Assembly: GCA_047602405.1 (NCBI GenBank)
Contig: JASGHJ010000002.1
Coordinates: forward strand, 1,056,001 to 1,120,000
Reading direction: 5' to 3'
DNA: 64,000 nucleotides
DNA from: Anaeromyxobacteraceae bacterium
GTDB taxonomy: Bacteria; Myxococcota; Myxococcia; Myxococcales; Anaeromyxobacteraceae
The notes beneath the pieces are model-generated. The model did no database searches. It was not told the origin of the DNA and saw only the letters and a list, made by a program, of their open reading frames with translations. Made by a program: the position numbers and the translations under genes. This document shows, in pieces, positions 29,418 to 39,893 of the stretch; within the stretch, counting starts at the first letter, position 1, and the number at the start of each line of letters is the position of its first letter.

Positions 29418-31637
29418 TCAGCGCACCGTCCCGGTGGGGCTCCGGCCGGCCTTTCCCTCGTCCGCCGCCGTGTCGGGCGCCCCGGCCGCGGGCGCCTCGC
29501 CGGCGCGGAGCGCCGGGCCGAGCTGCAGGCGGGCCGTGGCGAGGTCCCGCAGCTCGAGCGTCGGGGCGTTCGCGGCGAGGTGCGTGAGGGCGGCCCGGCC
29601 CTGCGCGCCGGTCTGGAAGGAGAGGAGGTACTCGAGCCGGGGCAGGGCGCTCGCCACCGGCGCCGCCTCGAGCGCCACGAGCTCGGACTCGAACGCCGCG
29701 CCGATCGAGGCGCCGCAGAGGGTGTACAGGGTCGAGTCGTAGCGCGGGACCGGCGCGGCGCCGAGCGTGGCCACGAGGGCGGCGCGCCAGGCGTCGCCGC
29801 CGGACGACCAGCGCGCGCAGGCCCGCCGGAGCGCGTAGCGCCGGGCGTAGTCGGAGTCGAGGCCGGCGAGGAAGCCCGCGAGGTCCGCGGGCTGCATCGA
29901 CGGGATCGTCCGCAGCAGGGCCCGCTCCTGGTGGCCCGCCGACCGCGAGAGGAACGGCGCCAGGCTGCCGCGGGAGACGTCGTCGGGCGCGAGCGCGCCG
30001 GCGATGGCGGCGTCGGCGTCCGTGTGGCTCGAGGCCTCGCGCTCGTCGAGGGCGGCGTACCCGCCCGGCTCGACGAGGACGCTCCCGGTGCTGCCCGGGG
30101 CGAGGGGGACGGCGTCGGCCACCCCCGATGCGGAGACGCGGGTCGCGGAGAGTGGGGCGATGAACGCGCCCGCGGAGCCGGTGGGCGTGAACGAGAGCTG
30201 GACCCCGCTCGCGACGTCGGCCCGCGTGGCGCCGTCGCCCGGGGCGCCCTTCACCGTCAGCTCCGCGAGCGCCTTCTGGAGGTCGGCCTCGCCGAGGGCC
30301 GGCGCGAACGCGCGCAGGAAGTCCTCGCCGGTCGCGCTGTCGTGGGCGTGGGCGTCGAGGAACGCCCGGAGGCTCGCCCAGAACGCCGCCTCGCCCACGC
30401 GCGCCCGGACCTGCGTGATCAGCGTGGCCGACCGCTGGTAGGGGCCGGTCGTGTACTTCTGGAGGCCCACCAGCGAGGGATCGACGATCGCGTGGTCGGG
30501 GTTGAAGGCGAAGTCGATCCCGAACAGCCGCCCGCTCGCGCTCCGGTCGCGGGATCCCCGCTGCGCCTCCGCGGCGAGCAAGGTCGCCATGCCCTCCTTC
30601 ACCCAGACGTCGTCGTAGGCCCGCATCGTGACCCAGTCGCCGAACCAGTGGTGCGCGAGCTCGTGCGCCGAGAGGCTGAAGTTGCGCCACCCGAGGTGGC
30701 CGCTCTCGGCGTCGAAGGTGATCGTCGCGTTCTCCATGCCGCCGCCGAAGGGCGCCGGGAGCAGCACGACCGAGTACCGGGAGAAGCGATACGGCCCGAG
30801 CAGCGCCTCGAACCGCGCCATCGCCTCCTCGACGTCGTCGAGGTTCCCGGCGGCGTCGACCGCGAGGCCGCGCCGGTACCAGAGCGCGAGCGGCACCGGC
30901 TTCCCGCCGGCGACCGCGCTCACGTAGGTCCGCTCGACGTGCTCGAGCTCGCCCGCCGCGAACGCCATCAGGTAGGTCGGCAGCGGCACGTCGATGGCGT
31001 AGCCGACGCGCCGGCCGCCGCTCGGGAGCGCCTGATCCAGAACGCGTTCGCCGTTCGCGACCACGTCCTCGTCGGCGAGCACGTCGAGCGTGACGGAGAA
31101 CGTCGCGCGGTCGGCAGGATCGTCCTTCTCGACCATCCACAGGTGGCCCTGCCTGGGCTCGGAGTCGGTGAAGACGACCCAGGAGCGCACGGGGTCGTTC
31201 GGCGTCGAGGTCGTCTGGGCGAGGCCGCCCGACTCGGGGGTGCGGTAGTGCACCGCGAGCGTGATGGGATCGCGGCTCCCGGCGAGCTTCCCAAGCTCGA
31301 CCTTCAGCGTGGGGCCCGACGGCGTGAAGCCGAGCGCGCTCCCGCCCGAGGACACGCTCGTGACACCCGCGGGCGCGTCGAGCTCGATCGAGGAGGTGAC
31401 GCCCTTGCAGAGCGCGAGCGTGATCGTCTCGTCCACCTCGAGCATCCCGGTCGTCGCGGGGGGCACGGGCGTCCGGTCGAACCTGCCGGCGAGCGCGTAG
31501 GAGAGCGCGTCGTAGGCGCGCGCGCCGGGCACCGTGCGCCTGCAGTCCTCCGTCGCTGCGCCGGGGAACTCCTCCCGCTCGCCGCAGGCAGCGAGGAGGG
31601 TGAGGACGACGAGGCTGAGCTTGAGGTGGTCGGTCAA
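29418..31637 (-). CDS. M1-family zinc aminopeptidase lipoprotein (paralog 2)
   Basis: TTG start overlapping the stop of paralog 1; LAAC lipobox; GGMEN; HELAHHWFGD-x-KEG. Confidence 0.88.
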   Translation of the reverse strand: MTDHLKLSLVVLTLLAACGEREEFPGAATEDCRRTVPGARAYDALSYALAGRFDRTPVPPATTGMLEVDETITLALCKGVTSSIELDAPAGVTSVSSGGSALGFTPSGPTLKVELGKLAGSRDPITLAVHYRTPESGGLAQTTSTPNDPVRSWVVFTDSEPRQGHLWMVEKDDPADRATFSVTLDVLADEDVVANGERVLDQALPSGGRRVGYAIDVPLPTYLMAFAAGELEHVERTYVSAVAGGKPVPLALWYRRGLAVDAAGNLDDVEEAMARFEALLGPYRFSRYSVVLLPAPFGGGMENATITFDAESGHLGWRNFSLSAHELAHHWFGDWVTMRAYDDVWVKEGMATLLAAEAQRGSRDRSASGRLFGIDFAFNPDHAIVDPSLVGLQKYTTGPYQRSATLITQVRARVGEAAFWASLRAFLDAHAHDSATGEDFLRAFAPALGEADLQKALAELTVKGAPGDGATRADVASGVQLSFTPTGSAGAFIAPLSATRVSASGVADAVPLAPGSTGSVLVEPGGYAALDEREASSHTDADAAIAGALAPDDVSRGSLAPFLSRSAGHQERALLRTIPSMQPADLAGFLAGLDSDYARRYALRRACARWSSGGDAWRAALVATLGAAPVPRYDSTLYTLCGASIGAAFESELVALEAAPVASALPRLEYLLSFQTGAQGRAALTHLAANAPTLELRDLATARLQLGPALRAGEAPAAGAPDTAADEGKAGRSPTGTVR

Positions 31638-33728
31638 GGCGTCTTCCCCCTGGCGTTCGCGAAGGCACCGAGGCGCAGGGTGGGAGGATACGATCGCACG
31701 TGCGTGGCCGCATCCTCTCCTGCGGCGTCGGACGGGAAGGAGAGGAGGTACTCGAGGCGCGTCAGGTCGGTCGGCGCCCGCCGCGCGTCGAGCGCCACGA
31801 GCTCCGCCGAGAACCGTGCCCCGAGCCCGCCGGCGCCGCAGGCCCAGTAGCCGGACGCGAAGCGCTCGCGGGGCGGCTGCTGCAGGGCGGCCCATAGCGC
31901 GTCCTGCCAGGCCGGTTCCGCCCCGTGTCGCTTGCAGGCGGACCAGAGGAGGCGCTCCTGCGCCTGCCACGAACCCAGCGCGTCGAGGATCGGGACGAGC
32001 GAGGAGGGGATCGGCCAGCCCGAGCGTGGTCCTCGAGAGGGCCAGCTCCTGGTGGGCAGCGGAGCGCGCCAGGAACGCCGCGAGCGCGTACGGCGAGCCT
32101 GGAGGCGGGACGAGAATTGCCTCCAGGCCAGCGGGTGGGAGGGGCGGATAAGGGTACAGCCCGCTCTCGTCGGGCGCGAGGTATCCGCCCGGTGGGACCT
32201 CGACCACGGTCTCGATGCCCGCGGGCAGCTCGACCCACCTGGCCGTGCCCTGGGCGTCGACGACCGTGACGGCGTGCGGGACGAGCGGTGCGAGCTCGCC
32301 CCCGGGCGCGGTGAAGGTGAACGCGCGGGTGCTCCCCAGGCCCCACGAGGAGACGAGCGGGAGCCCCTTCACCGTCAGCTGTTCGCGGACCCGCTCCAGC
32401 GTCGCGGCGTCGAGGTGGGGTGCGAACGCCTGGACGAGGTCCTCGCCCCGGGCGCTGCCGTCCGCGTGGGCGGCGAGGAAGGCGCGCCACGTGGACCAGA
32501 AGGTGTCCTCGCCGAGGAGCACGCGCAGCTGCGAGAGGAGGTAGGCCGCGCGCCGGTACGGGCCGTTCCCGTACTTCTCGACCCCCCGCAGCGACGGGTC
32601 GACGATCGCGTCGCCGGCCGCGAACCGGAACTCGCTCCCGAGGAATCGGCCGAGCCCGGCCCGGTCGCGCCCGGCCCGCTCTGCCTCGAAGCCGAGCAGC
32701 GTCGCGAAGCCCTCCTTCACGAAGAGGTCGTCCGGCGTGCGGATCGTGACCCAGTCGCCCGCCCACTGGTGCGCGAGCTCGTGGGCGTGCAGCTGCTCCC
32801 ACGGGTCCCCGGTCGCCCAGAGCTCGCCGATGAACGTGATCCCGACGTTCTCCATGCCCTGGCCGTAGGGTGGCGTCGGGACGAGCACGACGGCGTAGCT
32901 TTTCCAGGGATAGGGCCCGAGGAGCCGCTCGATGCCGGTGAGCTGCGACTCCACGAGGTCGAGGTAGGCGTCCACGTCGAGGAGGAGGCCGCTGCGCCAC
33001 CAGAGCGCCACGGGGTACCGCTCGCCGGAGGGAGACGCGTGGGTGCGGACGCGGCGGTCGAGCGCACCCGCCGCGAAGGCCATCACGTAGGGCGGGATGG
33101 GCCGATCCATCGCGTAGCCGATCCGCCGGCCGCCCGACGAGACCGGCTCATCGAGCACCCGCTCGCCGTTCGCGACGAGGTCGACCCCGTCCGGCACCTC
33201 CAGGCTGAACGAGAAGCGCGCGCGATCCGCGGGCTCGTCGTTCTCGACCATCCAGGTGTGGCCGAGCCGAGGCTCGGAGGCGGTCATGACCAGGGCCGTC
33301 TTCAACGGGTCGCCGGCGCCGGCGCCCTCGCGCGTGAAGAGCAGGCCTCCGCCCGCCGCGGGGGCGACGTACTCGACCTCGAGCTGCACGGTGTCGCCGG
33401 CCTCGCCCGGGACCGGCACGGTCAGCGTCTGCGCCGGGGTGTCGCGGGTGAACGCGGTAACCTTGCCGGCCACCTTCACCGAGAGGACGACGGGGGGCAC
33501 GTCGAGCTCGAGGCTCGCCGCGGCACCCTCGCAGAGCCCCAGCGTGAGGGTCTCCTTCGCGGACAGCGCTCCGGTGGTCCAGTCGAGGCGCCCCGCGACG
33601 TCGTAGGCCAGCGCGTCGTAGGCGCGCGGGCCGGGCGTCGTGTACGCGCACTCCGCCGTGGGCCGGTGCTTCGAGCCGGGGCAGGCGGAGAGGAGGAGGG
33701 CGGAAGCGAGGCAGGCCGGAGCTCGCAT
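31634..33728 (-). CDS. M1-family zinc aminopeptidase lipoprotein (paralog 1), +1 frameshift at ~32007
   Basis: LSAC lipobox; QGMEN; HELAHQWAGD..KEG; removing one C after GATCCC restores a C-terminus with RLEYLLSF, shared with paralog 2; TGA at 31634-31636. Confidence 0.85.
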
Positions 33729-33938
33729 GGGGCGCTCCTTCGCGAGGGAGGCGCCAGCATACGCGGCTGGCAGGCCTTCACGCGCGGTCCATGCAGCCAT
33801 CCGGCCCCGGGCTGCAGGCGCGGGCCGCCACGCCAAGTTCGCGCCACGGCCCGTGTCCCGCGCAGGTCCTTCGCTGCGACCGTCGGCCGCACGCTGCGTA
33901 CAGGGCCGTCCCCACGGCGGTTCTTCCGCGGCCTCCCG

Positions 33939-33987: not shown

Positions 33988-34290
33988 ATGGCCAACGTCT
34001 CGATCCGGAACGATCCAGCCCGCGCGGAGCACGTCGCCACGGTGCTGCGCGCCATCGCGCACCCGCTCCGCGTGCGCATCGTCGCGACGCTCTGCCGCTC
34101 GGAGCTGCACGTCTCGGCGCTCGCCGAGGCGCTCGACGCTCCGCAGGCGATCGTCTCGCAGCAGCTCAAGATCCTGCGCGCGGAGCGGCTCGTCGAGGCC
34201 CGCCGCGAGGATGGGTTCGCCTACTACCGGATCGCGGAGCCTGCGCTCCGCGACCTCGTCTGCTGCATGGAGAAGTGCCGCGCCGCCTGA
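33988..34290 (+). CDS. ArsR/SmtB-family transcriptional regulator
   Basis: LRAIAHPLRVRIV..L, VSQQLKIL, RREDG..YYRI; C-terminal CCMEKC. Confidence 0.9.
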   Translation: MANVSIRNDPARAEHVATVLRAIAHPLRVRIVATLCRSELHVSALAEALDAPQAIVSQQLKILRAERLVEARREDGFAYYRIAEPALRDLVCCMEKCRAA

Positions 34291-34312
34291 GGCGGCGAAG
34301 GGAGAGCGCAGC

Positions 34313-36631
34313 ATGGCCATCGGCCGCAGGCAGTTCATCCAGATCGGCGCCGGCGCCGCGGGCGTGGCGGGCGTCTCCGGGCTCTCGAGCCGCTGGTGGG
34401 GGCTCGACGGGGACCCCGTCCGCGACCCGGGCACCGAGGGCGATCACGTCGTCGCGACCTACTGCGAGCTCTGCTTCTGGGGCTGCGGGCAGCTCGCCCA
34501 CGTGAAGGACGGGCGCGTGACGAAGCTCGTCGGCAACCCGGCCCACCCGCTCTCGAACGGCGCGCTCTGCCCGCGCGGCGCGGGCGCGACCGGGCTCCTC
34601 TACGACCCCGATCGCCTGAAGAAGCCGCTCGTCCGCCGCGCCATGCGCGGCGAGGACGTGTTCGAGGAGGTCTCCTGGGACGCCGCGCTCAACGAGGTCT
34701 CCGAGCGCCTCCTCCAGGTGGCGAAGCGGCACGGCCCCGAGGCGGTCGCCCTCTTCACGCACGGCTCGGGTGGCGTGTGGTGGAAGACGTTCATGAAGGC
34801 CTGGGGGTCGCCCAACATCGGCGCCCCGTCCTACGCGCAGTGCCGCGGCCCGCGCGAGGCCGCCTTCACGGTGACCTTCGGCACGCCGCTCGGCTCGCCG
34901 GAGCCGCTCGACCTCGCGAACGCGCGGTGCATCACGCTCATCGGGTCGCACCTCGGCGAGAACATGCACAACACCCAGGTGCAGGAACTCGCCCAGGCCG
35001 TGGGCCGGGGCGCCGCCCTCGTGGTGGTGGACCCCCGCTTCAGCGTCGCGGCCTCGAAGGCGAAGCACTGGCTCCCGGTGAAGCCGGGCACCGACATCGC
35101 GCTCCTCCTCGCGTGGATGAACGTGCTCATCACCGAGAAGCTCTACGACGCCGAGTGGGTGAAGGAGCACGCGGTCGGCTTCGAGCAGCTCGCCGAGCAC
35201 GTGGCCGACAAGACACCGGAGTGGGCCCACCCGATCACGGGCCTCAGGCCCGAGCTCATCCGCGCCTCCGCCCGGACCCTCGGCGGCGCGCGGCCCGCGT
35301 CGCTGATCCATCCCGGCCGCCACACGGTCTGGTACGGCGACGACACGCAGCGCGGCCGCGCGATGGCGATCCTCGCCGCGCTGCTCGGCTCGTGGGGCCG
35401 CCGCGGCGGCTACGTCGCGACGGAGAAGTTCCCGCTCGCGCCGTACCCGCTGCCGGAGGGGCTGCCCCACCTCGTTTCCGGGGGGCTCGGCGCCCCCCGC
35501 CCCGCCGAGCAAGGCTCGTCGGGGCCCCACCCCGGCAGCACCGCGGCTGGCTGGACGCCGCGCCCGAAGGCCGACCTCCCGAAGGCGGGCGGCTACCCGC
35601 TCGCGACCGAGATCATCGCCTCCGGCCTCTGCGACGCGACCCGCCCCGGGCACGCGCTCTACGACCTCAAGGCCTGGATCGTCTACGGCTGCAACCTCGT
35701 CCAGGCCATGCCGGACCGCAAGCAACTCATCGAGACCATGCAGCACCTCGACTTCCTCGTCGCCGTCGACGTGCTGCCCTCCGAGATCGCCGGCTTCGCC
35801 GACGTGGTGCTGCCCGAGACCACCTACCTCGAGCGGCACGACGACCTCTCGGCGCCCGCCTGGAAGCGCCCGTTCGTGGCGCTCCGCCAGCCGGTGGTCG
35901 AGCCGATGTACGACGCGAAGCCGGGCTGGTGGATTGCGAAGGAGCTCGCGACCCGCACCGGGCTCGGCGCGTGGTTCCCGTGGAAGGACGCCGGCGAGTA
36001 CCTCGAGAAGCGGGTCACGGCGAAGGGGCTCGACTGGGAGAAGCTCCGGAAGGACGGCGTCCTCCTCGGCGCGCCCATCGCGACCTGCGAGGAGGAGGGG
36101 CTCCCGGTCTCGATCCCGACCGAGGACGGCAAGGCCCAGCTCTGGTCGAAGGAGCTCGCCGCGTTCGGCTTCGATCCGGTGCCGCAGTACGTGCCGCAGG
36201 AGGAGGCCCCGCAGGGCATGTTCCGCCTCCTCTCCGGGCGCGCGCCGACCCACACCTTCGGCCGCACGGTGAACAACCGGCTCCTCGCCGAGCCGTTCCC
36301 GGAGAACGAGGTCTGGATCAACGCCGCCGTGGCGGCGTCGCTGCCCGGCTTCGAGGAGAAGCCGCTCCGGGACGGCGACCGGGTGGTGCTCGTGAACCAG
36401 GACGGCATCCGATCGACGCCGGTCCGCGCGAAGGTCACCGAGCGCATCCGCGGCGACTGCGTGTTCATGGTCCACGGCTGGGGCCAGACCGCCAGGAAGC
36501 TCCGCTACGCCCACGGCAGGGGCGCCTCCGACTCGGCGCTGACGAGCCGCTACAAGGTGGACCCGATCATGGGCGGGACCGGGATGAGCGTGAACTTCGT
36601 GCGCCTCGAGCGCGCCGCCGAGGTGGCCTGA
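34313..36631 (+). CDS. psrA: Polysulfide/thiosulfate reductase-type molybdopterin catalytic subunit (PsrA/PhsA), Tat-exported
   Basis: GRRQFI Tat motif; CELC..GC...LCPRG (FS0); SYAQCRGPRE (Mo-ligand Cys); VDPRFS, KPGTDIA, WYGDD, ADVVLPETTYLER. Confidence 0.88.
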   Translation: MAIGRRQFIQIGAGAAGVAGVSGLSSRWWGLDGDPVRDPGTEGDHVVATYCELCFWGCGQLAHVKDGRVTKLVGNPAHPLSNGALCPRGAGATGLLYDPDRLKKPLVRRAMRGEDVFEEVSWDAALNEVSERLLQVAKRHGPEAVALFTHGSGGVWWKTFMKAWGSPNIGAPSYAQCRGPREAAFTVTFGTPLGSPEPLDLANARCITLIGSHLGENMHNTQVQELAQAVGRGAALVVVDPRFSVAASKAKHWLPVKPGTDIALLLAWMNVLITEKLYDAEWVKEHAVGFEQLAEHVADKTPEWAHPITGLRPELIRASARTLGGARPASLIHPGRHTVWYGDDTQRGRAMAILAALLGSWGRRGGYVATEKFPLAPYPLPEGLPHLVSGGLGAPRPAEQGSSGPHPGSTAAGWTPRPKADLPKAGGYPLATEIIASGLCDATRPGHALYDLKAWIVYGCNLVQAMPDRKQLIETMQHLDFLVAVDVLPSEIAGFADVVLPETTYLERHDDLSAPAWKRPFVALRQPVVEPMYDAKPGWWIAKELATRTGLGAWFPWKDAGEYLEKRVTAKGLDWEKLRKDGVLLGAPIATCEEEGLPVSIPTEDGKAQLWSKELAAFGFDPVPQYVPQEEAPQGMFRLLSGRAPTHTFGRTVNNRLLAEPFPENEVWINAAVAASLPGFEEKPLRDGDRVVLVNQDGIRSTPVRAKVTERIRGDCVFMVHGWGQTARKLRYAHGRGASDSALTSRYKVDPIMGGTGMSVNFVRLERAAEVA
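35479..35540. repeat. Double-hairpin element in frame within psrA loop
   Basis: CGGGGGGC-TCGGC-GCCCCCCG and GCCCCGCCGAGC-AAG-GCTCGTCGGGGC; rare codons (GTT, CAA, GCT) concentrated in and around it. Confidence 0.5.
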
Positions 36632-36633
36632 CC

Positions 36634-37182
36634 ATGGCGAAGGATCTCAAGCGGTACGGCATGGCGGTCGACACCCGGCGCTGCGTCGGGTGCAACGCCT
36701 GCGTCATCTCCTGCAAGACCGAGAACGCGCTCCCCGAGGGCGGCTTCCGCGACTGGGTCGTGCAGGAGACCTGGGGGACCTTCCCGGAGCTCTCGATGCA
36801 GATCCGCTCCGAGCGCTGCAACCACTGCTCGGACACGCCCTGCGTCTCGGCCTGCCCGACCGGCGCGAGCCACGTGGGGGAGGGCGGCACCGTCCTCGTG
36901 AACCCCGCGAAGTGCACGGGCTGCAAGGCCTGCATGGCCTCCTGCCCGTACGGCGCCCGCTACGTCCACCCCGACGGCCACGTCGACAAGTGCACCTTCT
37001 GCCTGCACCGCGTGACGAAGGGGAAGGATCCCGCCTGCGTCGAGACCTGCCCGACCCGCGCGCTCACCTTCGGCGACCTCGCCGATCGGGAGAGCCCGGT
37101 CGCGAGGCTCCTCGCCGCGCGCCGCCACGAGGTGGTGAAGCCCGAGGCCGGCACGAAGCCCAACGTCTTCTTCCTCGTATGA
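36634..37182 (+). CDS. psrB: 4x[4Fe-4S] electron-transfer subunit (PsrB/NrfC)
   Basis: CVGCNACVISC, CNHC...PCVSACP, CTGCKACMASCP, CTFC...PACVETCP. Confidence 0.92.
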   Translation: MAKDLKRYGMAVDTRRCVGCNACVISCKTENALPEGGFRDWVVQETWGTFPELSMQIRSERCNHCSDTPCVSACPTGASHVGEGGTVLVNPAKCTGCKACMASCPYGARYVHPDGHVDKCTFCLHRVTKGKDPACVETCPTRALTFGDLADRESPVARLLAARRHEVVKPEAGTKPNVFFLV

Positions 37183-37751
37183 GCGAGGTCGTGATGGAAT
37201 CGACGAACTCCGTTGGCCCCGAGCCTCAGGGTGCCGTTCGCCCCGAGCCTGTCGAGCGGCCCTTCTGGAACCCCTATCTCGGCGGCGCCGCGCTCGGCCT
37301 CGTGCTCCTCACCGCGTACATGGTGATGGGCAAGGGCCTGGGCGCCTCCGGCGCCTCCTTCCGCCTCGGCGTCGCCGCCGTCTCGGTGTTCGCGCCGGGG
37401 CATGCCGCCACCGCGCCGGGCCTGAGGTCGGTGGCGGCCGCGCCCTTCGACGACTGGCTCGTCTTCGAGGTGCTCGGCGTCGTCCTCGGCGGCCTCGTGG
37501 GCGCGTACACCTCGGGGCGCCTCAGGCTCGAGGTGCTGCGCGGCCCGGCGATCTCCGTGGGCGCGCGCCTCGCGATGGCGCTCGGCGGCGGCCTCCTGAT
37601 GGGCTTCGCGGCGAAGCTCGCGCGCGGCTGCACCTCCGGCCAGGCGCTCTCCGGCGGCGCGATGCTCTCGGCGGGCTCCTGGGCCTTCATGATGATGGTC
37701 TTCGCGGGCGGCTACGCCTTCGCGTGGACGGTGAGGAGGGCCTGGCGATGA
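37179..37751 (+). CDS. YeeE/YedE sulfur-compound transporter family protein (half 1)
   Basis: WNPYLGG, GLGASG, GGLLMGFAAKLARGCTSG motif; ATGA coupling. Confidence 0.88.
   Translation: MSEVVMESTNSVGPEPQGAVRPEPVERPFWNPYLGGAALGLVLLTAYMVMGKGLGASGASFRLGVAAVSVFAPGHAATAPGLRSVAAAPFDDWLVFEVLGVVLGGLVGAYTSGRLRLEVLRGPAISVGARLAMALGGGLLMGFAAKLARGCTSGQALSGGAMLSAGSWAFMMMVFAGGYAFAWTVRRAWR
37210..37256 (-). repeat. Two partial REP-like ends in the yeeE N-terminal extension
   Basis: CCGTTGGCCCCGAGCCT and CCGTTCGCCCCGAGCCTGTCGAG match TCCGTTCGCCCCGAGC at 24175 and 24217. Confidence 0.7.
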
Positions 37752-38947
37752 CGTTCCCCTTCGACGTCCTCGTGCACGGGGGCCGGGAGCTCGGCCTCGT
37801 CGTCGCCGTCGCGATCGGCTTCGGCTTCGGGTTCGTGCTCGAGCGCTCCGGCTTCGGCCGCGCGCAGAAGCTCGTGGCGCAGTTCTTCGGCGACGACATG
37901 ACCGTGTTCAAGGTCATGTTCGGCGCCATCGTCACCGCGATGCTCGGGGCGGTGGTGCTCTCCGGCCTCGGCCTCGCCGACCTCAGGGCCATCGCCGACA
38001 GCGCGACCAGCGCGACCTGGCTGTGGCCCATGATCGCCGGCGGGTTCCTCCTCGGCGTGGGCTTCATCGTCTCCGGCTACTGCCCGGGGACCTCGGTCGT
38101 GGCCGCCGCCTCCGGCAAGCTCGACGGCCTCGCCACGGTGGTCGGCGTCGTCGCCGGCACCGTCGTCTACGGCGAGCTCATGGCGTGGGCGCCCTTCGCG
38201 GCGTTCAGCGACTCCGGCTACCTCGGCCACGTCTACCTGTACGAGCTCCTCCACCTGCCGCCCGCTGTGGTGGCGCTCTTCGTCGCCGCGATGGCGGTGG
38301 CCTGCTTCGTCGGCGCGGAGAAGCTCGAGGCGATCTTCTCGAAGGGGGCGGCCTCGTCTCCGTCGGGTCCGAGGCGCCTCGTGTTCGCCGGCTTCGGCGC
38401 CGTAGCCCTCGCGGGCGTCGCCACGCTCGCGCTGCCCTCGGCCACCGCGGCCGTCGCCGCGCCCGCCCGCATCGACCCCGAGGCGCTCGCGCACCGGGTG
38501 GTCGAGGCGCCCTGGAACGTGCGCGTGCTCGACCTCCGCGCCGCGGAGGCCTGTGGCCAGGCCCGCGTCCCCGGCGCCGAGTGCGCGCCGGCCGCGAGCC
38601 TCGCAGAGCTCGACCTCGGCTTCGCCCCGGCCTCGCGCGACCTCGTCCTCGTCGCGGACGGCGACCTCGCCGAGGTCCCCGCCGCGGCGCGCGCCTACCG
38701 CGGCCGCGTGCTCGTCCTCGAGGGCGGCTGGGAGGCCTGGAAGACCTGGGCCCTCGACCGCGAGGACGCCGTGCAGTCGATGCCGGCCCCGGGCGCGCCC
38801 GCCGCCGACGTCGCCGCCTACCGGTTCCGCAACGCGGTCAACGCCGCCCTCACCGGCGTGAAGGTCGCGCCGCCCCCCGCGCCGGCCGCCGGCGGCGGGA
38901 TGCCCGCCCCGAAGCGCAAGGCCTCGGGCGGCGGCTGCAGCGGCTAG
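37748..38947 (+). CDS. YeeE/YedE (half 2) fused to a rhodanese-like domain with C-terminal GGGCSG tail
   Basis: GFGFGFVLERSGF, GYCPGT; then VLDLR....ARVPGA...VLEGGWEAW rhodanese fold; Pro/Ala linker and RKASGGGCSG end. Confidence 0.85.
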   Translation: MTFPFDVLVHGGRELGLVVAVAIGFGFGFVLERSGFGRAQKLVAQFFGDDMTVFKVMFGAIVTAMLGAVVLSGLGLADLRAIADSATSATWLWPMIAGGFLLGVGFIVSGYCPGTSVVAAASGKLDGLATVVGVVAGTVVYGELMAWAPFAAFSDSGYLGHVYLYELLHLPPAVVALFVAAMAVACFVGAEKLEAIFSKGAASSPSGPRRLVFAGFGAVALAGVATLALPSATAAVAAPARIDPEALAHRVVEAPWNVRVLDLRAAEACGQARVPGAECAPAASLAELDLGFAPASRDLVLVADGDLAEVPAAARAYRGRVLVLEGGWEAWKTWALDREDAVQSMPAPGAPAADVAAYRFRNAVNAALTGVKVAPPPAPAAGGGMPAPKRKASGGGCSG

Positions 38948-38963
38948 CCCCGGGAGACACGCC

Positions 38964-39893
38964 ATGCACGAGCTCGACACCTCTCGCCACAGCCACCTCG
39001 TCGATCCCCAGCTCCACGTGTGGGGCTGGGAAATCCCGGTCTACCTCTTCCTCGGCGGCATGGCCGCGGGGCTGATGATCACGACCTCTCTCCTCGCCGG
39101 CCGCGAGGGCGAGCGCAGCCGGGCCGCCCGCTGGCTCGGGCTCGCCGCGCCGGTGCTCGTCTCCCTCGGGATGGGCGCGCTGTTCCTGGACCTCGCGAAC
39201 CGCCTCCACGCCTACCGCTTCTACCTCGCGCTGCGGCCCACGAGCCCGATGAGCTGGGGCGCGTGGATCCTGCTCGTCGTCTACCCGGTGACGCTCCTCG
39301 GCGGCATCGGCGGGCTGACCGGCGCAGACGCGGCGCTCCTCGCGGCGCGGGCGGGGCCGCTCGGCGGCGCGGTGCGGTGGGCGCGGGCCTTCGCCGCGCC
39401 TCGTGCCGCGGCGCTCCGGGCCTGGACGCTCTGGACCGGCGTCGCGCTCGGCGTCTACACCGGGATCCTGCTCTCGTCCCTCGGCGCGCGGGCGCTCTGG
39501 GCCTCGCCGCTCCTCGGTCCGCTCTTCCTCGCCTCCGGCGTCTCCACCGGCGCGGCCTTCATGCTGCTCTTCGGCCTCGACGCCGGCGAGCGGCACGCGG
39601 TCTCGCGCTGGCACCTCGCCGCGGTGGGCCTCGAGGTGGCGCTCCTCGCGCTCTTCCTCGTGGGGCTCCTCGCCGGCGGCCAGGCGAGCCGCGACGCGGC
39701 GCAGCTCCTGCTGGGTGGCAGGTTCACCGCGGCGTTCTGGGCGCTCGTCGTGATCGCGGGCCTCGGGGTCCCGGTGGCGCTCGAGCTCGGGGAGGCGCGG
39801 CTGCGCCTGCGCCCCACGCTCGCCGCGCCCGCGCTCGTGCTCCTCGGCGGGCTCTCGCTGCGCTGGATCCTGGTGGCCGCAGGGCAGCTGTGA
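38964..39893 (+). CDS. psrC: NrfD/PsrC quinol-binding membrane anchor
   Basis: WGWEIPVYLFLGG, LFLDL, SPMSWGAW, YTGILL, LRWILV. Confidence 0.9.
   Translation: MHELDTSRHSHLVDPQLHVWGWEIPVYLFLGGMAAGLMITTSLLAGREGERSRAARWLGLAAPVLVSLGMGALFLDLANRLHAYRFYLALRPTSPMSWGAWILLVVYPVTLLGGIGGLTGADAALLAARAGPLGGAVRWARAFAAPRAAALRAWTLWTGVALGVYTGILLSSLGARALWASPLLGPLFLASGVSTGAAFMLLFGLDAGERHAVSRWHLAAVGLEVALLALFLVGLLAGGQASRDAAQLLLGGRFTAAFWALVVIAGLGVPVALELGEARLRLRPTLAAPALVLLGGLSLRWILVAAGQL

Follow-up and report, generated by a model that had tools for sequence, protein, structure and literature searches.

A psrABC operon of an Anaeromyxobacteraceae bacterium with a split YeeE pair and a cysteine-tipped rhodanese-fold arm

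The catalytic subunits PsrA, PhsA and SrrA are indistinguishable by sequence (PMC10100899; PMC12949373), and the substrate of a Psr or Phs enzyme cannot be read from it (PMC13047784; PMC12949373). A phsABC-pmpAB-sulfurtransferase cluster, its function given as unknown, is already in print for Ca. Electryonea, Ca. Lernaella and Caldithrix abyssi (PMC9324843; PMC5317091). The operon described here has the same gene set and lies in the genome of an Anaeromyxobacteraceae bacterium (NCBI assembly GCA_047602405.1), in a stretch of 64,000 nucleotides of contig JASGHJ010000002.1 (positions 1,056,001 to 1,120,000) that is called the window below; its six genes, arsR-psrA-psrB-yeeE1-yeeE2::rhodanese-psrC, occupy 33988..39893 on one strand. 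It departs from the published cluster in having its yeeE genes placed between psrB and psrC and in starting with an arsR gene; a Pmp-sulfurtransferase fusion is also present in Ca. Lernaella (PMC9324843).

The domain fused to YeeE2 ends in a disordered tail that carries a cysteine close to its last residue, and we propose that this Cys-tipped tail is a tethered, periplasm-facing carrier of sulfane sulfur that would serve both PsrA and the YeeE channel, a reading that we hold with equal measures of belief and doubt. The module to which it belongs is a widely conserved accessory to a known enzyme family, in a gene cluster that is itself known.

The PsrABC enzyme, the predicted split YeeE channel and the arm

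The operon is predicted to encode a reductase of the PsrABC type and of the PsrA/PhsA/SrrA lineage. The Thermus PsrA structure 2VPW is the top Protein Data Bank match of the window PsrA (E 1e-210, 705 bits), and the nearest named record, from Anaeromyxobacter, is 94% identical. The RRxF leader, the CxxCxxxC...C motif, Cys177 and His150 line up with Thermus PsrA, as expected of a Tat-exported Mo-bisPGD subunit, and the leader, the Mo-ligand Cys177 and His150 are invariant in 26 PsrA homologues. By Pfam, a four-cluster B subunit and an NrfD-type C subunit are both encoded in the operon. Enteric PhsABC is different: the PhsA equivalog score is 438 bits versus a cut-off of 694, the anchor is of the NrfD type and not a cytochrome b, and identity to Salmonella PhsA is 31%. 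The PhsA family search gave no match in any control genome.

The adjoining YeeE/YedE genes with GCTSG and GYCPGT motifs that the preliminary description reported were verified in both motifs and coordinates, as was their ATGA overlap. Such stop/start overlaps occur at psrB-yeeE1 and yeeE1-yeeE2, and the remaining intergenic gaps are 22, 2 and 16 nt. Both proteins match PF04143 (E-values 3e-21 and 8e-15). The YeeE1 profile aligns to TsuA residues 239-329, with Cys151 at the place of TsuA Cys293, and the YeeE2 profile to residues 5-126, with Cys112 at the place of Cys91 and a Gly at that of Cys22; the YeeE1 Cys and the YeeE2 CPGT are invariant in 61 aligned rows. Of the TsuA residues, Cys293 is on the periplasmic side and Cys22 on the cytoplasmic one (PMC7449682). 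The split gene, the Gly at the Cys22 position and the lack of an adjoining gene for a TusA-like partner set the pair apart from TsuA/TsuB. PmpAB, a two-Cys split form without Cys22 (PMC11582611), likewise consists of neighbouring half-size YeeE genes, of which one holds the C91 and the other the C293 equivalent, and so does YedE1E2, a split two-Cys pair that imported zero-valent sulfur, did not export it and required both Cys residues (PMC10812762). On these alignments, yeeE1 and yeeE2 form a putative split channel of the PmpAB/YedE1E2 type. The idea that the arm substitutes for TsuA Cys22 was considered and rejected, because Cys22 is cytoplasmic (PMC7449682) and PmpAB does without it (PMC11582611).

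The domain that follows YeeE2 had been called rhodanese-like in the preliminary description, which is right as to fold and not as to activity. The Pfam rhodanese match is weak (19.1 bits versus a cut-off of 22.2), and the fold is backed by an AlphaFold model and by Foldseek, whose top matches are rhodaneses. In the active-site column stand Ser, Gly, Ala, Asp or Arg, and Cys in none of 61 homologues; these 61 rows had been chosen beforehand for a terminal Cys, and hence are left out of the tip counts. Among the best 150 matches in a 50%-cluster library, the active-site Cys is present in 2 of 105 single-domain homologues and in 19 of 45 multi-domain rhodanese controls. Judged by its sequence, this domain is no active rhodanese. 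The same 150 proteins have a Cys within the last three residues in 96/105 single-domain homologues versus 1/45 multi-domain rhodaneses, counts favoured by a search profile that includes the tip. Terminal EGC was found in all 44 full-length homologues of a Calditrichota arm, two short generic rhodanese matches having been set aside; the arm homologues include proteins of C. abyssi. As a background rate, 10 of the 4209 open reading frames (ORFs) of the host genome end in GC by a crude filter. Two arm homologues (P0211, P0257) have a Gly at the end instead of Cys, which may reflect loss of the Cys, a sequence error or a recoded stop codon.

In the AlphaFold model no secondary structure follows residue 369, and the confidence score pLDDT is 44-50 in the last two blocks. 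The extra helix at residues 209-229 corresponds to the N-terminal anchor of unfused arm homologues. The arm domain is predicted to be periplasmic, on the same side as the Tat-exported PsrA, because by TsuA topology this helix returns the chain there.

Conservation of the module and the scaffolds of its tip

The PsrA search gave 31 loci, of which 7 were cut short and 24 are complete. The YeeE pair and a Cys-tipped arm stand in the operon in 22 of the complete loci, one with a frameshifted read, and this synteny survey speaks against the lack of conservation with psr that the preliminary description would have taken as a refutation. Twelve of the 22 have the gene order of the window, and in the other 10 it is psrABC-yeeE1-yeeE2-arm, the arm being a separate gene. 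The position of yeeE between psrB and psrC, remarked on before, is therefore real here and no general trait, since it is confined to the 12 loci of Myxococcota type; the split of psrB from psrC is, on these gene orders, a lineage-specific rearrangement. Recurrence of the arrangement in relatives also shows that it is not due to chance.

In an even draw of 301 Bacteroidota genomes, 43 had a match; there were 43 full-length strong matches, and 40 were fetched. The main PsrA group, present in 23 of the 301 genomes and also in Myxococcota and Calditrichota, has the module in all 20 complete loci (2 more were cut short). A metagenome sample, the best 80 of 510 loci found with YeeE1, comprised 46 loci linked to Psr, 14 linked to Otr and 20 other or short; given 1.5 kb of flank, a Cys-tipped arm is present in 26/26 Psr-linked, 9/9 Otr-linked and 5/9 other loci. 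Eighteen Myxococcota-phylum loci, hand-picked among stronger arm-profile matches, are Psr-linked in 12 cases and Otr-linked in 6, all with the YeeE pair. The arm-profile search of 251 genomes of this phylum at 1e-12 returned mostly generic rhodanese domains, and its tally of 198/251 is not used; no statement here depends on the unpublished genome G488 among its matches. The YeeE pair is a conserved part of this Psr lineage; as a Psr partner it holds up in its conservation with Psr and not in specificity, being found with Otr as well. A second Anaeromyxobacter Psr paralogue (L036-L038, L025, L068) consists of psrA, a psrB-cytochrome b fusion, the YeeE pair, a separate GGCG-ended arm and arsR.

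The tip is not confined to the rhodanese fold. PsrA has a (D/E)EGC end of its own, after a variable linker, in 26 of the 120 best homologues of one PsrA, and the EGC-tailed PsrAs form a single clade (4/4 sampled, quick tree). In one such locus, L196, on a single 4.55 Mb contig, the tailed PsrA and PsrB are followed by a fusion of cytochrome b to YeeE1, by YeeE2 and by an anchored linker of 133 aa that ends in EGC and has no Pfam domain. Rhodanese-less YeeE pairs are followed in 5 of 6 cases by a small unrelated protein ending in GC or GCS. The psrABC locus L051 has no yeeE, and the ORF after it is of low complexity, starts in a signal-like way and ends in EGC; the L051 genome, 68% complete, gave no YeeE1 match. 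Where the window PsrA has a Cys-free variable loop, Thermus PsrA carries an internal GGCSG loop. This distribution of the tip over several scaffolds suggests that what is conserved is a flexible Cys tip close to both enzyme and channel, and that the rhodanese fold, which we read as a spacer or docking scaffold, is dispensable. The AlphaFold model of a tail-bearing PsrA leaves the tail disordered (pLDDT 33-39), and docking is neither supported nor tested by it.

Some further features of these loci were observed. The clade of EGC-tailed PsrAs (L178, L196; P0050-P0074, P0162) has an acidic tail, the cytochrome b-YeeE1 fusion is present in both loci examined, and in L196 a chaperone gene lies ahead of psrA. 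The GC/GCS-ended protein that follows the YeeE pair in L048, L053, L080, L081 and L095 is secreted-looking and about 100 aa long, and several of these loci also carry an uncharacterised multiheme cytochrome. The GGCSG loop was considered as a mark of all module-less PsrAs and rejected, since a module-less Bacteroidota clade has no such loop.

Table 1. Positions of the features of the operon in the window
Feature	Position	Strand	Basis
arsR, ArsR/SmtB-family regulator, 100 aa	33988..34290	+	Pfam HTH_5
psrA, Mo-bisPGD catalytic subunit, 772 aa, twin-arginine leader, FS0 motif	34313..36631	+	Pfam molybdopterin and Fe4S4
Genome-wide palindromic repeat, in frame within variable PsrA loop	35474..35541	+	63 genome copies of at least 50 nt
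psrB, four-cluster Fe-S subunit, 182 aa	36634..37182	+	Pfam Fer4_11; NrfC/DsrO/TtrB-like
yeeE1 (PmpA-like), putative C-terminal half of TsuA-type channel	37179..37751	+	PF04143
yeeE2::rhodanese, whole gene	37748..38947	+	PF04143 in membrane domain
yeeE2 membrane domain (PmpB-like), putative N-terminal half of TsuA	37748..38371	+	Profile mapping to TsuA
Extra transmembrane helix, residues 209-229	38372..38434	+	Hydropathy; AlphaFold helix 209-228; unfused homologues
Rhodanese-fold domain without catalytic Cys, plus closing helix	38465..38854	+	Foldseek; Cys column counts
Disordered Pro/Ala/Lys tail ending GGGCSG; Cys397 codon 38936-38938	38855..38947	+	AlphaFold; homologue counts
psrC, NrfD-type quinone-binding membrane anchor, 309 aa	38964..39893	+	Pfam NrfD E 3e-36

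A proposed tethered sulfur carrier and its alternatives

In the proposed mechanism, Cys397 would be charged, as a per- or polysulfide, with sulfane sulfur drawn from polysulfide, S0 or thiosulfate. In this enzyme family quinol electrons pass from PsrC through PsrB to the Mo site of PsrA, and here they would break the S-S bond on the arm and set HS- free. Cys151 of YeeE1 would be loaded by the arm as well, and sulfur would pass from it to Cys112 of YeeE2 and on to a thiol in the cytoplasm, to be used, detoxified or sensed by ArsR, by analogy with YedE1E2. The tip is linked to the enzyme because it occurs on PsrA itself, on the EGC-ended ORF of L051 and in the Thermus GGCSG loop, and the channel is linked to the complex because the cytochrome b anchor of L196 is fused to YeeE1. 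The transmembrane sulfur relay suggested in the preliminary description is still the best reading; its label of a respiratory system is unproven, cluster-bearing C. abyssi having reduced sulfur only while fermenting (PMC5317091).

Several observations weigh against the carrier. The tip is missing in 9 of the 105 single-domain homologues, and the tail is Lys-rich in some homologues and Glu-rich in others, which speaks against a single specific docking site. L196 has the tip on both PsrA and a separate protein, so that the PsrA tail is no simple replacement of the arm. Four TusA matches are present in the genome, none of them near the operon, and the locus counts given above are not independent, because many loci are close kin. 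In a second Bacteroidota PsrA group the module is absent from all 14 loci that have enough flank, out of 17 fetched, and PF04143 was not found in 5 of 5 tested genomes of the module-less group; this PsrA fold, then, does not need the module. The module-less clade (L179-L195), probably of green sulfur bacteria, has DxCCGP in place of the AQCRGP motif; in a quick tree made without Thermus, Wolinella or Srr sequences it sits on a long branch inside the PsrAs that bear the module, and this placement suggests loss of the module. In experiments, Shewanella psrABC alone restored thiosulfate reduction (PMC12949373), and cluster-bearing C. abyssi respired neither S0 nor thiosulfate when given H2 or acetate (PMC5317091). 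It made sulfide from both only during peptide fermentation, and the authors of that study suspected an inactive enzyme (PMC5317091), so that a role as electron sink or in sulfur acquisition is as plausible as growth-supporting respiration.

The alternative that survives best, though we think it unlikely, is that the arm belongs to the channel only: PsrABC would reduce free thiosulfate or polysulfide, and the arm would capture a sulfur product or co-substrate for import, a view close to the proposal in PMC9324843. The fusion of the arm to YeeE2 in many lineages, the company of an unrelated enzyme such as Otr, the existence of module-less PsrAs and the complementation by Shewanella PsrABC by itself (PMC12949373) are all in keeping with it, but it does not account for the tip fused to PsrA in 26 of the 120 homologues, nor for the GC-tipped ORF after the yeeE-less psrABC of L051, incomplete as that genome is.

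We regard as improbable an outward or redox relay, in which the YeeE Cys pair would send reducing equivalents or sulfur from the cytoplasm to the arm and so activate or clear a periplasmic enzyme. By homology Cys112, Cys151 and Cys397 could form a three-Cys chain across the membrane, thiol-disulfide partners have been proposed for SoxT systems (PMC11582611), and the operon has no maturation chaperone gene, the sole chaperone match of the genome (PF02613) being on another contig. Against such a relay, YedE1E2 imported and did not export sulfur (PMC10812762), and the same module accompanies Otr, a heme-only enzyme with no Mo site to sulfurate.

An oxidative direction, with sulfide oxidised onto the arm, the sulfane sulfur imported or detoxified and nitrate or oxygen as final acceptor, has a slighter chance still. 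The genome has Sqr-like and SorA-like genes, the tip resembles that of SoxY, and C. abyssi failed to respire sulfur (PMC5317091). SoxY and DsrA, however, gave no match in the host genome (98% complete), and the SoxY domain PF13501 none in the YeeE2-arm protein or the genome; the characterised family members are reductases (PMC10100899), and C. abyssi did make sulfide from S0 and thiosulfate, credited by its authors to cytoplasmic enzymes (PMC5317091). A selenite-reducing (Srr-like) or selenium-handling system, to which the inseparable PsrA, PhsA and SrrA sequences and the ties of some YedE proteins to selenium could point, is the most doubtful of all and selenite an unlikely substrate, since srr is defined by srrD, srrE and srrF (PMC12949373) and the operon, contrary to the Srr analogy drawn earlier, has no srrD-like chaperone or separate rhodanese genes, the Selenium-YedE models score 27-29 bits versus cut-offs of 200-350, and the tips observed are Cys.

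Beyond the carrier itself, we suggest tentatively, and with more doubt than trust, that the Cys-tipped swinging arm and split YeeE are a general, portable unit for handling sulfur in the periplasm of anaerobes, a counterpart of SoxY on the reductive side, by which Psr-type Mo enzymes, Otr-type octaheme cytochromes and one or more enzymes of the type II DMSO reductase family would act on protein-bound and not free sulfur, the arm turning up rebuilt on PsrA itself as well as on a dead rhodanese, on a bare linker and on a small unrelated domain. What Otr does in nature is a matter of debate. Should sulfane sulfur bound to the arm be the true substrate, assays that supply polysulfide or thiosulfate in free form miss the physiological reaction; if the proposal holds, many annotations of a "rhodanese-like sulfurtransferase" in these operons need re-reading as carriers.

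Regulator, genome context and comparison with described systems

The ArsR gene that the preliminary description put at the head of the operon does encode an HTH_5 protein. Among its aligned homologues Cys93 is kept in 45/47, Cys97 in 47/47 and Cys36 in 34/~48; the BigR model scores 64 bits versus a cut-off of 155, and the spacing of the conserved Cys departs from the BigR pattern. ArsR is a candidate sensor of sulfane sulfur. Several relatives (L023-L027, L068) have two tandem arsR copies upstream of psrA. No Rfam match and no promoter- or terminator-like site was found. Pieces of relatives cover 28-29 of 30 bins in two root metatranscriptome runs of one study (word shares 0.06-0.09) and are not used, because contigs cannot show co-transcription.

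The host genome has a second module (L216, G000 C1:203832-209300) with Otr (TIGR04315, 538 bits), cytochrome c/b, the YeeE pair and a GGCG-ended arm; the reading frame of its yeeE2::arm is broken near C1:208.8 kb. A sulfur island (L217, G000 C1:214130-226600) has SorA-like, Sqr-like, rhodanese and full-length YeeE genes, and a Cys-less rhodanese-like ORF ending in GGGCL, after which comes an enzyme of the type II DMSO reductase family (TIGR03479, 729 bits, under the cut-off) that is a possible third enzyme partner. An additional ORF there has a GCL end.

The palindromic repeat in psrA is incidental to the PsrABC-YeeE system, and its site is empty in the 94%-identical relative. The same ~68 bp repeat stands in frame, with the same peptide reading, in two more genes (G000 C2:855812 and C2:2726529), presumably kinase-like and helicase-like, and at most 6 of the 63 copies are in coding-like frames; we take it to resemble coding palindromic elements. 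Elsewhere in the window, a long ORF at 29418-33836 (minus strand) has a frame irregularity between two tandem units, which we assume from their motifs to be M1 aminopeptidases, and positions 56001-64000 have a GC content of 0.55-0.68, against ~0.75 elsewhere, which may reflect foreign DNA or rRNA.

In the open full-text literature, to which this search was confined (supplements and papers under subscription, among them the primary ones on Srr, Sud and Thermus Psr, lay outside it), no description of the dead rhodanese site or of the terminal-Cys arm was found. The passages on the published cluster in PMC9324843 name the protein a sulfurtransferase and make no mention there of a missing catalytic Cys, a terminal Cys arm or transfer between scaffolds.

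The closest solved structure is Thermus thermophilus PsrABC (2VPW-2VPZ), with which the window enzyme shares the Mo-ligand Cys, the His and the NrfD-type anchor; a Thermus control genome of uncertain strain and psr content gave no PF04143 match. Wolinella Sud, a polysulfide carrier and the sulfur donor of Psr, uses its rhodanese active-site Cys, the very residue absent from the window domain. The tip of SoxY reads GGCGG, and the window arm has a similar Gly-Gly-Cys motif in a region of predicted disorder; it differs from SoxY in having no homology to it and in being membrane-tethered. In SoxYZ sulfur is bound to a conserved Cys, and this protein has been proposed to feed SoxT (PMC11582611). 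Srr of Bacillus selenitireducens has its catalytic family in common with the operon described here, and rhodanese-domain partners in its operon; the operon in the window has no srrD or separate srrE/srrF, and has a YeeE pair that the description of srr does not list. PmpAB and YedE1E2 likewise consist of two halves with one Cys each (the C91 and C293 equivalents) and no C22. Compared with these, the window halves are longer (190 and ~200 aa versus ~130) and have the arm added, and they are linked to a periplasmic redox enzyme where PmpAB/YedE1E2 is linked to a persulfide dioxygenase.

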